Sequence record: PZ452579.1
Direction: 5' to 3' (one strand)
Length of the DNA stretch: 64,000 nucleotides
Source of the DNA: a phage
Shown here: in pieces, positions 23,053-57,351 of the stretch
How positions within the stretch are numbered: position 1 is the first letter of the stretch
How the letters are laid out: each line of letters begins with the position of its first letter
Made by a program: the position numbers and the translations under genes
Notes under the pieces: generated by a model
What the model saw: the letters and a program-made list of their open reading frames with translations, nothing else
What the model was told of the DNA's origin: nothing
The model's database searches: none

Positions 23053-23382
23053 TTATACTCTAGGCTTTTGAGCTTGTTTGGTATTGGATTCCCATGCGGC
23101 TTTGGTAATTTTGTTAGCGGCATAACCAAAGGCATTAGATAGAACACCTTTAGAGTTGAATACATCCAATCCAATAAGTACACCGGCTGTGTTAAATTTA
23201 GGAGCAAAGTACGCATTAGTTTTAGAAAGAGCTTTTTTCAATTCAGGGTCTTGAACCAAGCCATCAAAAACGCCTTTACTATTTACTTTATATGTTACTT
23301 TGGGATTTTTACCTTCTTCGATAGCAGCTTTCTGTTCCGCAGATAATGTAACTTCAGTGATAAACTCTTGATACGTTTTCAT
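23053..23382 (-). CDS. internal-protein-like, capsid-targeting leader MKTYQEFITE
   Basis: N-terminal 10 aa match T4 IP capsid-targeting sequence; SD AGGA. Confidence 0.7.
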   Translation of the reverse strand: MKTYQEFITEVTLSAEQKAAIEEGKNPKVTYKVNSKGVFDGLVQDPELKKALSKTNAYFAPKFNTAGVLIGLDVFNSKGVLSNAFGYAANKITKAAWESNTKQAQKPRV

Positions 23383-23407
23383 TTTGTTCCTATTGTTTTA
23401 ATTTATG

Positions 23408-23722
23408 TTATTCTTTAGGGAAGTTTTTAGAGTATGCGTCATAAAGTTTATTACCGATGCGACGGAAGACTTTAGCTGCAAAACGGTTTTCAGGGTTTTT
23501 AATCATGATTTGCATCATGTAAGTTCCTGCATCCGAAAGAGCTTCTTCGTAGTACCCATTAATTTCTTTAAGAGTCCTACGTTTACCACCAGGACCATCA
23601 ACAGTAATTTTCCATTTACCTGTAGAAGTGCGGCTCGGTGGCTCAACTTGTTCAATCCAAATATAACCACCTTCAACGCGTTGGTTGGCGGATTCTGCAA
23701 TAAATTCTTTATATGTTTTCAT
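23408..23722 (-). CDS. internal-protein-like, leader MKTYKEFIAE
   Basis: Leader matches T4 IP consensus; 104 aa. Confidence 0.7.
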   Translation of the reverse strand: MKTYKEFIAESANQRVEGGYIWIEQVEPPSRTSTGKWKITVDGPGGKRRTLKEINGYYEEALSDAGTYMMQIMIKNPENRFAAKVFRRIGNKLYDAYSKNFPKE

Positions 23723-23753
23723 TTTTTGTTTCCTTGTTTGTTTTGATAGAGTA

Positions 23754-23783
23754 ATTATACCATATTAATACTTAAGCGTAAAC
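23754..23783 (-). promoter_or_regulatory. early promoter cassette (-35 GTTTAC, 18 nt, -10 TATAAT)
   Basis: Minus strand upstream of 23408..23722. Confidence 0.55.
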
Positions 23784-23786
23784 AAT

Positions 23787-24047
23787 TTAAGCTTTACCGC
23801 CAGAAATAATTCCGAAGTTGTTAAAATCGTATCCAATATCGTCAACATCTACTTTAGGACTTACTACAACATAAGCAATTTCACTACGTTTTGCATAGGT
23901 GTTGATTTCTTTACCATCGCCACCTAAGAAAGAATACCCATTACGTTTTAATGAGCCAAAGTCTTCCGCATCACCAATGAAAGCTTTAACTTTAAATTTG
24001 GGGTCTTTGGCATCTGCTTCAGCTATAAATTCTTGATACATTTTCAT
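23787..24047 (-). CDS. internal-protein-like, leader MKMYQEFIAE
   Basis: Leader matches T4 IP consensus; 86 aa. Confidence 0.7.
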   Translation of the reverse strand: MKMYQEFIAEADAKDPKFKVKAFIGDAEDFGSLKRNGYSFLGGDGKEINTYAKRSEIAYVVVSPKVDVDDIGYDFNNFGIISGGKA

Positions 24048-24053
24048 TTTTCC

Positions 24054-24467
24054 TTAGTAAATTGATTTACCATAGTATTTGTACCAAGTCGGACGTTGAG
24101 CAATTTTTTCATCTAAGCGTGCTTGACTTATCGCAATGGACGCTTCGGACGGGACGTAATTATTACGAAATTCTACAGGGATGTCGGAAATATCCTGGAC
24201 AGTCGTGTCCTTGATTTTGAAACCACGTTTCAAACATTCGGCGATTAGCTCGATTTGTCGTAAACGTAAAAATTCAAGTTTGTCGTAAAAGAATGTTACG
24301 TGACCTGTGCCTAAGATAAATGTTGGAGAGATTTTAAAATCCTTTACACGTTTACCGTTTTGAACATGTTTACGGACTGCACCAAATACGCGTGGTAATT
24401 CACGATACTCAGCCATAAGATGTTGGTCGGTCAGTTCAGAAACAAGTGTTAAATTGATACGGGTCAT
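24054..24467 (-). CDS. denV: endonuclease V (pyrimidine dimer DNA glycosylase)
   Basis: 137 aa from [33 protein letters not shown]...; matches recalled T4 DenV. Confidence 0.9.
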
Positions 24468-24494
24468 AATTTCCTCCAAGTAGTTGATGAATGT

Positions 24495-24524
24495 ATAGTA
24501 TCAAAACCCTTGGAGGAAGTAAAC
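24495..24524 (-). promoter_or_regulatory. early promoter cassette (-35 GTTTAC; -10 TACTAT-like)
   Basis: Minus strand upstream of denV. Confidence 0.5.
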
Positions 24525-24525
24525 A

Positions 24526-24807
24526 CTATTTTTCTGAAGCGCCTGAAATATATTTTTCAAGTCGTTGCTTCATTAGCGAGCCGTTCTTAGCGATTTCTTC
24601 CGGTTTATCGCACATACGTAACAAGGCTTCAAGCTTAGCGATATCGCTGGTACGTTCAAATTTGCGAGTATCTATCTTACTAGCAAGTTCAGAAATACGT
24701 GCTAATAGACTTTCGGCTTCAACCAAAGCTGCACCTAGCTTAGTTGCAAATGTGTCAGTAGCTTCGTTAAGAATAGATTCTGATAAAAATTCACTATATG
24801 TTTTCAT
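24526..24807 (-). CDS. internal-protein-like, leader [10 protein letters not shown]
   Basis: ATG overlaps lysozyme stop (ATGA); leader matches IP consensus. Confidence 0.65.
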
Positions 24808-31914: not shown

Positions 31915-32247
31915 TTAATTTTTCCAACTTAACAACTTGTAGTGTCCTTCATTCATACGTGGTTTATCCCAAGAAATACTAATATATGATTCGCTGTCAA
32001 TAGAAGTCGCCGGGTTTTTCTCTACCGTAAGACCTTCACTTTCCAGCCATTCAATAGTATTTGCGCATAAATCTGAAGAACACCTAATCGGAAACCGGCA
32101 AGATTTTTCACCTTTAGCTGCAGTGTTATACATCTTTTCTAAAATACGCTTTTGCACGTTTTTAAAAATAGTTTCAGCAGATTCTTCAGATTTTTTATTC
32201 AGTTCAGTGTAAAGACTCATAACATTCTTCTCATTAATAGGGCTCAT
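31915..32247 (-). CDS. hypothetical protein (110 aa)
   Basis: ORF. Confidence 0.5.
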   Translation of the reverse strand: MSPINEKNVMSLYTELNKKSEESAETIFKNVQKRILEKMYNTAAKGEKSCRFPIRCSSDLCANTIEWLESEGLTVEKNPATSIDSESYISISWDKPRMNEGHYKLLSWKN

Positions 32248-32277
32248 AATATCTCAATCATAAGCCCATGTACGCGT

Positions 32278-32553
32278 TTATTTCATATTATCGAAATATT
32301 CTTCAGCGATTTCGTCATTATCATGGTAAACTTTAGAAGACAGTTTAACATAACCTTCTGCGGTGAACATATTAATCACAACCTTTATAGTATACCACTG
32401 TCCGTCTTCATTACCCATTACTGCGTAAGTTTCAAACATCGGATGGTCAGGTCCAATAACTTTAATATCATTCACCGTACGACCAAAATCTTCTGGAACG
32501 CATTTCATAAAGAAGTTGAACAGTTCACCGTAATTATCCATTTCATTCTCCAA
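32278..32553 (-). CDS. hypothetical acidic protein (91 aa)
   Basis: ORF. Confidence 0.5.
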   Translation of the reverse strand: MENEMDNYGELFNFFMKCVPEDFGRTVNDIKVIGPDHPMFETYAVMGNEDGQWYTIKVVINMFTAEGYVKLSSKVYHDNDEIAEEYFDNMK

Positions 32554-32583
32554 GTTTTTTCTGTATCGGTAGTTGATAGTTGT

Positions 32584-32613
32584 ATAGTACCACGGAAGAA
32601 CAGGGATGTAAAC
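32584..32613 (-). promoter_or_regulatory. early promoter cassette (PeSL-like)
   Basis: -35 GTTTAC, 18 nt, -10 TACTAT on minus strand. Confidence 0.5.
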
Positions 32614-32721
32614 AGTTTTGTGAAAAAATTTTTAAAAAGTTTTGGGGAATTCTAGGGCAGGGAGAGGAAATTAAAAGGTAGGATAATATATTATAAAGGG
32701 TTAAACTAAATGATGCCTAGA

Positions 32722-32769
32722 GAGGCCCGGAAAGGCCTAGATACCAAAAAGCCCTATCATTTAGATAGG
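32722..32769 (-). terminator. tandem hairpins (CCCUAUC-n5-GAUAGGG + U-tract; AGGCC-n6-GGCCU)
   Basis: Immediately after stop of 32779..33342. Confidence 0.55.
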
Positions 32770-32778
32770 GATTTAAAA

Positions 32779-33342
32779 TTATTTACCTAGTTTAGTTATT
32801 ATAGCTTCGGCAGCAGCTTTTAGCTTAGATGCAGTGTTAATACGATTTTTAATTTCAGTATACGCATCGCCAAGAACATCAAGGCTATCAGAATAAACAC
32901 TTACACTATTGCGTTCGCTATTTGAAATAGAACCTTTAGTTTTACGATCAAAATCAGTGTACACGTCTTGAAGATCACGGGCTGCCTTCTTTGCATCATC
33001 CAATGCATCAAGAGCTTTATTCAAAGCATTGACATATTTTTTAGTGTCAAACATATTCTTAGAAATTTTAACAGGTGCACGTTCAGGAGTAGCTAAGGCG
33101 GATTTAGGAACCTGCGTGCCAGATGCCAGTTTCTTAGAAATTTTGAAAAACGCTTTATTGAAACTATTTTCTTGTCTCATCGTAAAAGAACTAGTATCGA
33201 TGTTATACATTTCAATAGCTTTAGCTTTCCACTTAAGAAAATCGCCGCGGTCTTTTGGATCCAAGTGGAAGAATACTTTAGTAAGATCTGCTTCAGATGG
33301 TAATTTTGCTGCTTCGGTTAAAAATTCGGCATAGGTTTTCAT
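32779..33342 (-). CDS. internal-protein-like (187 aa), leader MKTYAEFLTE
   Basis: Leader matches T4 IP consensus; Lys/Ala-rich helical body. Confidence 0.7.
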   Translation of the reverse strand: MKTYAEFLTEAAKLPSEADLTKVFFHLDPKDRGDFLKWKAKAIEMYNIDTSSFTMRQENSFNKAFFKISKKLASGTQVPKSALATPERAPVKISKNMFDTKKYVNALNKALDALDDAKKAARDLQDVYTDFDRKTKGSISNSERNSVSVYSDSLDVLGDAYTEIKNRINTASKLKAAAEAIITKLGK

Positions 33343-33432
33343 TTAAAATCCTTGAAATAATTTATCGGTTGGTTATTAATTATTTATTACTTTGTTATTA
33401 TCAGTAACAGCATTCTCTGAGTGATTCAAACT

Positions 33433-33459
33433 AAAAAGCCCCAACCTTTCGGAAGGGGC
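33433..33459 (-). terminator. rho-independent terminator (identical 27-mer)
   Basis: Third copy of AAAAAGCCCCAACCTTTCGGAAGGGGC. Confidence 0.6.
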
Positions 33460-33771
33460 TAAGCCTTGCGGCAACCTTGTCGGGGTTCCACCTGCTAAGG
33501 CAAGTGTTTGTACGAAACGCCGGGATTCGAACCCGGTTATTAAGTAGTTGACGCTACTCAATATTTTTAAAAGGCCATATCTCGACCATATCCGAACGTT
33601 CCGTCAAAAACGCTACTCGGCTTACGGCAAAGATATTTCCTCGAATCGATAATTCTGTGCGCCGTTTCTGCTGTGATGTAATGGGATATTAACAAATCGT
33701 AAAGATTTATTAAGACCAGTCCTTACTCAGGGAACATCAGTCCGACGACTTACCGGTAGCGACCCGGCTTC
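33460..33771 (-). ncRNA. candidate small stable RNA with tRNA-like T-arm
   Basis: No credible ORF; CCGGG-TTCGAAT-CCCGG T-arm-like element at 33516..33536 (minus sense); no canonical cloverleaf found. Confidence 0.25.
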
Positions 33772-34116
33772 TTATTTTGACATATCATCAATTTGCTCTC
33801 GACGCCGACGCCATAGATTAATCGCTTCATTAACACATTCGGCGTTTGGTATATGACGGCAATAATATAATGATTCACGTTTCTGGAACCGATGTTGCAA
33901 TGGTATTTCGTTTAAAAGGTCTTTACGGTCAAAGTATTCAAAACTAGTTAACCCAGAACGGTTTTTAATGAACTTCCAATGTCCAAATTCATTTTGAACA
34001 TAGATGTAATCGGCATGCTGATACAGCGAATTAATCAATCGATGAGAAATAACTGTGTCATATTCGTTAAAATAAAACGTTAAATCATGAACTACCAGAT
34101 AAATATTGCCTTTCAT
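33772..34116 (-). CDS. hypothetical protein (115 aa)
   Basis: Start at ATG (MKGNIYLVVHDL...) after SD GAGG; track ORF start lies inside tRNA-Arg. Confidence 0.5.
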   Translation of the reverse strand: MKGNIYLVVHDLTFYFNEYDTVISHRLINSLYQHADYIYVQNEFGHWKFIKNRSGLTSFEYFDRKDLLNEIPLQHRFQKRESLYYCRHIPNAECVNEAINLWRRRREQIDDMSK

Positions 34117-34134
34117 ATTTTCCTCACTTAAAGT

Positions 34135-34211
<77 letters not shown>

Positions 34212-34217
34212 AATATA

Positions 34218-34291
34218 TGACCCAGACCAGATTCGAACTGGTAACCTTTCCCTTATGAGGGGACTGCTGCTAACCATTGAGCTACAGGGCC
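34218..34291 (-). tRNA. tRNA with CAU anticodon (Ile2-like or Met)
   Basis: 5' end and T-arm resemble E. coli tRNA-Ile2; anticodon loop CTCATAA; imperfect acceptor and D stems. Confidence 0.55.
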
Positions 34292-34370
34292 TAAATAACT
34301 TTCTATTATGAAAGGCACTTTAGAGTACCTTTGGTAATAGAGGGTATTAATTAATAATAACACATAATTC

Positions 34371-34886
34371 TTAAAGCAAATCAATCATTTTAACAGTTGG
34401 CAAAACGATTTCTTCTTCAATATAAGCAAATTCAACACATTCAACTACACGCAAGAAATCATAATCATAATATTCAGAAGCATGGCCAAGAATATCAATG
34501 AGACCTTCTGATACCAAATATCCATTCTCACGGAACAGGTCGAATACACGCGATTCGTCTTCTTCAGATTTATCGCCAAGGTCAACTTCAATACCAAAGA
34601 CCTTTTTAATGAATTCCGGCTGGAGCTGGTCAGAGAACAGTCCTTCAACCAGATATTCGTAGATAATAAGCGAGCAACGACCGAATGGCATATTACCACA
34701 GTAACGTTCAGCTTTAGTGCTAGAATGACGACTCTTAAATTTCTTCAAAAGATATTTAAACTGTTGGAGCTCATGCTCTTCTACACCAAACAACGTTTTA
34801 GTTTTATAGTTGTCGCCGTCATTTTCCCAAGTAGTGACATCAATTACGTAACCCTTAGGAATTGTACTGCCTAAACAAATATTCAT
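34371..34886 (-). CDS. hypothetical protein (171 aa)
   Basis: ORF. Confidence 0.55.
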   Translation of the reverse strand: MNICLGSTIPKGYVIDVTTWENDGDNYKTKTLFGVEEHELQQFKYLLKKFKSRHSSTKAERYCGNMPFGRCSLIIYEYLVEGLFSDQLQPEFIKKVFGIEVDLGDKSEEDESRVFDLFRENGYLVSEGLIDILGHASEYYDYDFLRVVECVEFAYIEEEIVLPTVKMIDLL

Positions 34887-35795: not shown

Positions 35796-36059
35796 TTATT
35801 TCAAATATATTGCGTATTTTTTATAGCCACCAGGCTCGTGTCGAAGACCTTTATCATTCGCAAAACGTTGAATGTTATTGAACTGATTTTCATCAAGTTC
35901 GGATGTGTCAAATATAAAAAAGTTTCGTTTGTTACCAAGCGTGATATGCGGAGTTAAGTCAATGTTATACAAATTAAGAATATCAGCAATAACCTGATTG
36001 ACTGCTTTGTTAATTTTCACACCAGACGATTCTGAGATGAATTCGTTGAAAGTTTTCAT
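35796..36059 (-). CDS. internal-protein-like, leader MKTFNEFISE
   Basis: Start at second ATG; leader is a variant of IP consensus. Confidence 0.6.
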   Translation of the reverse strand: MKTFNEFISESSGVKINKAVNQVIADILNLYNIDLTPHITLGNKRNFFIFDTSELDENQFNNIQRFANDKGLRHEPGGYKKYAIYLK

Positions 36060-36091
36060 TTTAGGTTCCATTTGGTTGTTTTGATAGGACT

Positions 36092-36121
36092 ACTATAACA
36101 TAGTCCTACCATGATGTAAAC
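36092..36121 (-). promoter_or_regulatory. early promoter cassette (PeSL-like)
   Basis: -35 GTTTAC, 18 nt, -10 TATAGT; dyad TAGGACTA/TAGTCCTA. Confidence 0.55.
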
Positions 36122-36432
36122 TATTTTATGCCTTTAGATGAAATAGTATTCTGGCGTTTGACCCCAGTTTGTGAAAAATCATGGTTATCAATTTGGTCAA
36201 CTCGCATAACACCAAACGCAGATTTAATTTTGGCCTTTGAACCTTTTTTGATACTAATTACCATATAAGTATCATTTTTCTTATATTCGAAATTTGATAC
36301 TTCAACGCCTTGATTAGAAATTGACTTAATAATAGCATTAGCGTATTCATCATCTAACGGGCCGTTAGTGTTAATAACAAAATTTTTATCCGCTTTAGTA
36401 GCTTCCGCGATGAATTCTTGATAGGTTTTCAT
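36121..36432 (-). CDS. internal-protein-like (ipI position), leader MKTYQEFIAE
   Basis: Exact T4 IP leader; 103 aa; adjacent to 57B as ipI is in T4. Confidence 0.7.
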   Translation of the reverse strand: MKTYQEFIAEATKADKNFVINTNGPLDDEYANAIIKSISNQGVEVSNFEYKKNDTYMVISIKKGSKAKIKSAFGVMRVDQIDNHDFSQTGVKRQNTISSKGIK

Positions 36433-56563: not shown

Positions 56564-57328
56564 ATGGCAACTTATGATAAAAATCTTTTCGCCAAGCTAG
56601 AAAATCGTGGTGGGTATTCTCAGACAAATGAGACCGAAATCCTCAATCCATTTGTCAATTTTAATAACTATGAGAATAGTCAGACATTAGCCGATGTTCT
56701 AGTGGCAGAAAGCATACAGATGCGCGGTATTGAATGTTTTTATGTTCCACGTGAATATGTTGCTGTGGACCTTATCTTTGGTGAGGACCTTAAAAATAAA
56801 TTTACTAAAGCATGGAAATTTGCTGCATATCTGAACTCATTTGAAGGTTATGAAGGAGCGAAATCGTTCTTCAGCAACTTCGGAATGCAAGTTCAAGACG
56901 AAGTTACATTATCTATTAACCCAGGTCTTTTCAAACACCAGGTCAACAATCAGGAGCCCAAGGAAGGTGATTTAATATACTTCCCAATGGACAACAGTTT
57001 GTTTGAGATTAACTGGGTTGAACCATATGACCCATTCTATCAAGTAGGTAAAAATGCGATTCGTAAAATTACTGCAGGCAAGTTTATTTACTCTGGTGAA
57101 GAAATCAATCCAGTGCTTCAGAAAAATGAAGGTATCAATATACCTGAATTTAGTGACTTGGAACTTAACCCTGTTAGAAATCTTGACGGTATCCATGACA
57201 TTAATATCGATGAATATTCTGAAGTTGAGCAAATCAATTCAGAGGCAAGTGAATACGTTGAACCATATGTAGTAGTTAACAACCGTGGTAGACAAAATTC
57301 ACCATTTGACGATGGGTTTATGAATTAA
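56564..57328 (+). CDS. 14: neck protein gp14
   Basis: 254 aa; synteny. Confidence 0.9.
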
Positions 57329-57351
57329 TAAATAAATAAGATAAAGCAAAC

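Follow-up and report, generated by a model that had tools for sequence, protein, structure and literature searches.

The DNA analysed here, hereafter called the window, is a stretch of 64,000 nucleotides (sequence record PZ452579.1) from an RB69-like Mosigvirus, and its segment 32400-33700 is 98.5% identical to RB69. An open reading frame on the minus strand of this segment encodes a protein of 187 aa. A preliminary description made from the letters alone had already picked it out as a stand-alone leader-bearing gene, and the reading frame at 32779..33342, starting with MKTYAEFLTE, agrees with it. The features of the locus are as follows, given from upstream to downstream of the gene.

33433..33460, minus strand: intrinsic terminator forming the upstream border of the cassette and ending the tRNA-rnaD-rnaC unit (-16 kcal/mol, followed by UUUUU)
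33381..33388, minus strand: putative variant T4-type late promoter AATAAATA, 38 nt before the ATG, with equivalent octamers in relatives
33349..33353, minus strand: Shine-Dalgarno-like AAGGA, 6 nt before the ATG, read from the sequence
32779..33342, minus strand: coding sequence of the 187-aa protein, a member of PHROG 2280 (full-length profile match, E 4.8e-53)
33313..33342, minus strand: capsid-targeting leader MKTYAEFLTE, codons 1-10, with 8 of 10 residues identical to MKTYQEFIAE of T4 IPIII
33118..33300, minus strand: N-terminal helical domain, residues ~15-75, the conserved module, with the motifs RGDF.K., Y.IDT and AF (pLDDT ~80)
33049..33117, minus strand: flexible linker, residues ~76-98 (pLDDT <50 at residues 81-87); the linkers of relatives are long and rich in Pro, Ala and Lys
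32782..33048, minus strand: C-terminal three-helix bundle, residues ~99-187, the variable module (helices 101-134, 141-153 and 158-185; pLDDT ~90)
32744..32770, minus strand: the cassette's own intrinsic terminator, forming its downstream border (7-bp stem, then CUUUUU; -10.5 kcal/mol, z -3.0)

A terminator-bounded cassette behind the tRNA and small-RNA unit

The hairpin at 33433..33460 occupies a position identical to that of a T4 hairpin, and the one at 32744..32770 was the sole terminator reported by a consensus scan. Together they form a 28-nt direct repeat with 75% identity and a spacing of 687 nt. Compared with T4, the 687 bp of the cassette are cleanly inserted between GGGGCTTTTTGG and TATCTAAGCC. 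The gene had been described as bracketed by terminators, with tandem hairpins on the downstream side. The upstream terminator and the first of the downstream hairpins (z -3.0) bear this out; the second downstream hairpin (about 32715-32748) does not, and it was rejected as a terminator, with a z of -0.17 against shuffled sequences, no U-run, and a counterpart in T4, which lacks the gene.

The tRNA locus is indeed in the vicinity of the cassette as had been stated, but the two are not in direct contact, as homologues of rnaC and rnaD and one ORF intervene. The segment 33430-33777 is 92.8% identical to rnaD plus rnaC of T4. These rnaD/rnaC homologues (minus strand) are unannotated, and Rfam has no family for them; a small-RNA-like segment of another kind occupies the same place in phages KMB17 and PKO111. 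The intervening ORF (33772-34116, minus strand) resembles RB69ORF150c and lies between tRNA-Arg and rnaD, where T4 is geneless; AR1, CT01 and PhAPEC2 have related ORFs in the corresponding position. In the window, ARAGORN reported only two tRNA genes, Arg-TCT and Met-CAT, at 34135-34291 on the minus strand, and these two tRNAs were all that Rfam found in 32500-34500. At this locus T4 has eight tRNA genes and SA21RB eleven.

Leader, predicted processing site and protein family

The N-terminus of the 187-aa protein, MKTYAEFLTEAAKLPS, reads MKTYAEFLTE/AAKLPS, the slash marking the predicted cleavage. L8-T9-E10/A11 is the sole site of the form [LI]-x-E in the whole protein, and the prohead protease gp21 is predicted to cut after E10. 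The predicted new N-terminus is thus Ala11, AAKLPSEADLTK, and the predicted mature form has 177 aa, a mass of 19.7 kDa and a pI of 9.56. Lys accounts for 13.9% and Ala for 12.3% of the residues, and the AlphaFold2 model is all-helical, in line with the Lys/Ala-rich helical body noticed earlier. Purifying selection acts on the gene, with a dN/dS of ~0.12 against SA21RB and PhAPEC2 (14 synonymous and 7 non-synonymous differences).

The window contains seven leader-bearing ORFs, the 187-aa one being, as had been claimed, the largest (the other six have 86-109 aa). Four of the others lie at the ipII/ipIII position (23053-24807) and two at the ipI position (35796-36432). Two adjacent paralogues at the ipII/ipIII position (23053-23382 and 23408-23722, minus strand) belong to PHROG 3966, which is labelled 'unknown function' although its members bear the capsid-targeting leader. 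A tblastn search of the window with T4 IPIII matched exactly the seven leaders and nothing more. Because the leaders alone were matched, the genome of the window is regarded as lacking an IPIII orthologue.

The preliminary description had offered two identities for the 187-aa protein, namely an IPIII counterpart moved to a new position or a novel cargo protein. Homology to T4 IPIII, IPII or IPI was examined and rejected, the leader alone being matched. BLASTP against T4 IPIII aligned residues 1-12 only, with no similarity beyond them, and hhalign, likewise confined to the leader, gave a probability of 3.9%. T4 IPIII falls in PHROG 5341, and the 187-aa protein in PHROG 2280 ('unknown function'), where its residues 1-181 match profile positions 1-178. 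The first identity can thus be discarded. From its sequence, a novel cargo protein appears to be the best reading, with the correction that the family is widespread and already collected as PHROG 2280, though unnamed.

The extent of this family emerged from several searches. A word search of 5.8 billion proteins returned near-identical copies only, while an exhaustive HMMER search added one distant full-length relative (P0014; 29-31% identical, leader MITFNEFLNE/S), and two profile iterations led to 49 clusters. Using the KMB17 member as the tblastn query yielded 190 more phage records, from Karamvirus, Dhakavirus, Jiaodavirus, Winklervirus and a Yersinia phage. PHROG 2280 is also matched by every member tested, among them relatives of five other lineages and the 157-aa protein encoded next to the 187-aa gene in some phages. 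The family covers at least six Tevenvirinae genera, and its members are all annotated as hypothetical.

The leader, the cleavage motif and the basic charge are conserved throughout this family. Of 46 family representatives, 44 carry the leader and two are gene calls that begin inside the N-domain; 43 of the leader-bearing 44 have L or I at P3 of the cleavage site. Leaders that have diverged in other genera, such as MLKFKDILTE, MRFKEFLTE and MINFKQFIAE, retain L/I-x-E. The mature proteins have 176-208 aa, about 20 kDa and a pI of 9.41-9.87, with bodies only ~20-30% identical. Their architecture is a leader, an N-domain of ~60 aa (consensus ERMTK.KWQSAMD.VP.GERDDFMKF...YGIDT...AFKSLRG), a Pro/Ala/Lys-rich linker and an exchangeable C-domain. 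P0014 and P0023 have N-domains that are 78% identical and C-domains that are unalignable. The 157-aa neighbour has its C-domain, and not its N-domain, in common with the KMB17 member (32%, E 3e-8). The C-domain of the 187-aa protein itself is 27% identical to that of P0014 and unalignable with that of some other members.

AlphaFold2 with an alignment of 37 sequences gave a usable model (mean pLDDT 79.1), and the single-sequence model was poor (pLDDT 61.8). Foldseek with the former returned nothing from the PDB at E <= 0.001, and BFVD returned matches to the protein's own family alone. Neither the single sequence nor the family profile had a meaningful match among PDB sequences, and PADLOC gave nothing for the 187-aa protein. 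The only Pfam match, Cytochrome b562, was set aside as helical-bundle noise (E 0.0023; 18.9 bits against a cut-off of 30; 4 of 37 members). Hence, no homologue of known function was found by fold or sequence in Pfam, PDB, PADLOC, Foldseek or BFVD. Literature searches with locus tags and accessions turned up no paper naming the gene or its accessions, and neither a virion proteomics nor a genetic report on any PHROG 2280 member was found. The main text of the paper on Yersinia phages fPS-65 and fPS-90 mentions neither proteomics nor the 187-aa gene.

Two further observations were made among the relatives. In contig L005 (Logan contig SRR28624380_555336), the gene of the distant homologue P0014 is directly followed by a gene (2092-2526) for a 144-aa ART-PolyVal/DUF3990 protein with the leader MITFKQFLNE/S; judged by its sequence, this protein may be an ADP-ribosyltransferase-like effector distinct from Alt that is delivered by the capsid. 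In the record of Klebsiella phage PKO111 (NC_031095; L010 1023-2385), a family member of 194 aa with the leader MKFKDFLTE is unannotated. The preceding 'vertex head subunit' ORF in this record looks chimeric, consisting of a gp24 N-terminus and unrelated sequence, and it may represent a misassembly. Because of this doubt about the record, the synteny of PKO111 with head genes was left out of the argument.

Site polymorphism and expression signals

In JS98, KMB17, PKO111 and SA21RB, the first cassette of the family comes immediately behind the terminator of the tRNA/small-RNA unit, and in CHI14 one extra ORF lies between this unit and the family gene. Since most of the relatives examined occupy the site directly after this terminator, it is suggested to be the family's usual position, and the earlier idea that the gene had moved to a new one is not upheld.

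The occupation of the site is polymorphic. Among 731 T-even phage records having both flanks, the 187-aa gene is present in 165 and absent in 566, and, among the matches listed and with the exception of CT01, its copies have a protein identity of at least 95%. The spans of matches point to four states of the site: empty (T4, about 600 bp), with the 157-aa leader gene only (AR1, RB18), with the 187-aa gene only (RB69 and the window), and with both (ime09, SA21RB, PhAPEC2). In the two-cassette genomes, the terminator hairpin is duplicated before each cassette with 93-100% identity. The block from e.8 to rnaC/rnaD (window 32217-33777) is 91-93% identical to T4, as compared with 70-80% for the flanking genes; this points to a segment recently exchanged between Mosigvirus and Tequatrovirus.

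Two alleles with internal changes were also found. Perfect 14-nt direct repeats (33056-33069 and 33131-33144, coding for KISKK and KISKN) flank the linker in the window. Shigella phage CT01 (L008 1501-1989) has lost exactly the 75 nt between these repeats, that is, 25 residues in frame, and the linker is thus dispensable for the open reading frame. In the RB69 reference (NC_004928), a single-base deletion at ORF nucleotide 368 changes CGTGATCTT to CGTGTCTT and splits the gene, intact in the window, into ORF148c and ORF149c (window 32779-33342 against L001 6380-6942). This frameshift is either a real pseudogene of a laboratory stock or a sequencing error. As the copy of the reference phage is frameshifted, the gene appears to be dispensable on laboratory hosts.

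As to expression, the sequence at 32584..32613, previously taken for the gene's own promoter cassette, proved to belong to the downstream gene e.8, as its early promoter. Neither an early nor a MotA-type middle promoter was found before the 187-aa ORF by promoter scan and sequence reading. Five of the other leader genes, all but 23787-24047, were compared in this respect: early-type GTTTAC promoters stand immediately before three of them, and no own promoter was seen for two. The octamer AATAAATA upstream of the 187-aa gene is a first-position, one-mismatch variant of the T4 late promoter TATAAATA. By itself, AATAAATA occurs at chance frequency in the window, and its assignment as a late promoter therefore rests on the relatives. 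In all relatives examined, a late-promoter octamer, either TATAAATA or one of the variants GATAAATA and AATAAATA, stands 30-40 nt before the ATG. The canonical octamer is found at 30-35 nt in JS98, KMB17, PKO111 and SA21RB_137 (the paralogous neighbour), GATAAATA is at the equivalent place in CHI14 and contig L005, and AATAAATA precedes the first cassette of PhAPEC2. SA21RB, a two-cassette genome, has TATAAATA before the first cassette only. The 90-nt leader region with AATAAATA also precedes the 187-aa gene where this gene is the second cassette.

The same octamer (window form AATAAATAAATA) was seen ~40-45 nt upstream of gene 15, both in the window (57327-57338, plus strand) and in T6 (L012 284-291). 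The sequences of these gene 15 sites suggest that a first-position variant of the late octamer is in use in T-even phages.

Function of the 187-aa protein and its alternatives

The leader with its processing site, the basic charge, the size of ~20 kDa and the mostly canonical late promoters have been kept in the family despite divergence, and on comparative grounds these features together speak strongly for a family of head cargo. The gene is also accessory and has been exchanged between genera, and the modules of its family are swapped; the most likely function is thus that of an injected anti-defence effector. Our preferred reading, to which we assign a probability of about 0.72, is that the gene encodes an accessory T4-type internal head protein that would be expressed late, processed by gp21, co-injected with the DNA and, by analogy with Ip1-3, probably active against restriction. 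PHROG 2280 as a whole, still unnamed, is most likely a T4-type internal protein family that has not yet been recognised as such.

The proposed course of events would be as follows. Transcription would be late, probably from the AATAAATA octamer, and the MKTYAEFLTE leader would take the precursor into the prohead's scaffolding core. The gp21 prohead protease is expected to cut the leader off after Glu10, and the basic mature protein of 19.7 kDa would stay with the packaged DNA and be injected alongside it. In the newly infected cell, it would most probably neutralise a first-line host defence; the target may be a modification-dependent restriction nuclease of the GmrSD type, in analogy to T4 Ip1, Ip2 and Ip3. 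The exchangeable C-terminal helical bundle would confer target specificity, and the conserved N-domain and linker might serve a common function, e.g., association with DNA. T4 Ip1, Ip2 and Ip3 are injected, subtype-specific inhibitors of GmrSD that have the leader alone in common (PMC12373910; PMC9391042), with Ip3 inhibiting the GmrSD of ECOR17 (PMC12373910). Because Ip1-3 have no sequence in common beyond this leader, inhibition of GmrSD is a point that sequence cannot decide.

A bolder version of the effector idea is possible, though we hold it only tentatively. PHROG 2280 may consist of capsid-delivered effectors built like polymorphic toxins, in which a fixed leader and an N-module with linker carry interchangeable C-terminal 'warheads'. 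Such terminator-bounded cassettes would be stacked at a third internal-protein hotspot and exchanged between Tevenvirinae genera, with each C-module disarming another host defence, not necessarily GmrSD.

A different role for a packaged protein has also to be considered. The 187-aa product could be a bulk basic protein that neutralises DNA or aids its ejection and has no target in the host, a role of the kind often assumed for IPIII. Its size and charge match those of IPIII*, in a genome without IPIII, and the pI exceeds 9.4 in all mature forms of the family. The long Pro/Ala/Lys-rich linkers of the relatives recall histone-H1-like tails and were counted in favour of this role. Moreover, the N-domain and the genomic position are kept across genera. 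The classical Ip genes are more 'hypervariable', and the constancy seen here would also fit a structural, DNA-associated function. However, the linker is short in the window copy and deleted in CT01, and the swapping of C-domains among members is typical of target-specific effectors. The absence of the gene from T4 and from most Tequatrovirus records, together with the frameshift in the RB69 reference, further indicates that it is not needed for head function. Finally, T4 IPIII itself is now known as a specific GmrSD inhibitor (PMC12373910). A purely structural or physicochemical role is hence considered unlikely.

Rather less credit is given to the idea that the protein is not packaged at all but acts in the cytoplasm of the producing cell, with the shared 5' end of the genes, made up of the ribosome-binding region and the leader codons, serving as a recombination linker between cassettes. 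Such a linker would agree with the 5' ends of the two neighbouring paralogues, which are 76% identical over 42 nt, the untranslated part included (L002), and with the repeated regulatory sequences that bound the cassettes, as the PeSL model describes for modular shuffling (PMC2839356; PMC4122927). On the other hand, the leader with L/I-x-E is kept as protein where the leader DNA has diverged, and late promoters fit head assembly. It should be further pointed out that in T4 the capsid-targeting sequence, a 10-residue signal, suffices to load foreign proteins into the prohead (PMC3012670).

Expression of the window copy is not assured, as a strong terminator sits just upstream. It is nevertheless very improbable that this copy is silent or decaying, i.e., that deletion of an upstream paralogue removed the canonical late promoter and left the ORF behind the terminator (-16 kcal/mol), as might be supposed from SA21RB-type two-cassette genomes with TATAAATA before the first cassette only, from the AATAAATA alone retained in the window and from the frameshifted RB69 reference copy, since the ORF is intact with a dN/dS of ~0.12, the 90-nt region with AATAAATA precedes the gene as second cassette elsewhere, the first cassette of PhAPEC2 also has AATAAATA, and first-position variants stand before family genes in CHI14 and L005 (GATAAATA) and ahead of gene 15 in both the window and T6 (AATAAATA).

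With an injected internal head protein as the preferred reading, the 187-aa gene points to a third Ip locus, attached to the tRNA/small-RNA unit, in addition to the two described in the literature (PMC12373910). It also points to a larger family of two-module proteins in several hundred T4-like phages with sequenced genomes, infecting Escherichia, Shigella, Yersinia, Enterobacter, Klebsiella, Serratia and Cronobacter. If packaged, the members would be candidates for new anti-defence functions and for host-range determinants in therapeutic phages. The natural alleles (empty site, one or two cassettes, swapped domains, linker deletion and frameshift) offer a genetic series on the function of the modules.

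Comparison with known systems

T4 IPIII (Ip3) resembles the 187-aa protein in its 10-residue leader with gp21 site (8 of 10 residues identical), in being non-essential and in being the largest internal protein of its genome. The processed form IPIII* (183 aa, 20.4 kDa, pI 9.65) is also close to the predicted mature form of 177 aa, 19.7 kDa and pI 9.56. The two differ in locus, IPIII being encoded between denV and e and the 187-aa protein after the tRNA/rnaC unit, and the predicted fold of the latter, two helical modules joined by a linker, is unlike IPIII.

IPI* and IPII of T4 (Ip1/Ip2) agree with the 187-aa gene in leader and basic charge, in presence/absence polymorphism and in cassette-like layout, and by analogy an injected anti-restriction role may be expected for it too. 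They are, however, half its size (about 85-100 aa) and non-homologous to it. Early-type promoters (GTTTAC...) precede the ipI/ipII-type genes in the window, whereas a terminator and a late-type octamer stand before the 187-aa gene.

Within PHROG 2280, the members JS98 orf135, KMB17 UKH49535 and SA21RB_136/137 agree with the window copy in architecture, leader, late octamer and, mostly, position. The window copy stands apart from them in having the most diverged N-domain, the shortest linker and a variant octamer.

The cassettes resemble those of PeSL shuffling (PMC2839356, PMC4122927) in that repeated regulatory hairpins delimit them and that indels fall exactly at repeats. In contrast to the early promoter and stem-loop of PeSL, the repeat here is a terminator hairpin, mostly followed by a late octamer: both borders (33433-33460 and 32744-32770) are terminators, and no GTTTAC-type early promoter precedes the ORF.
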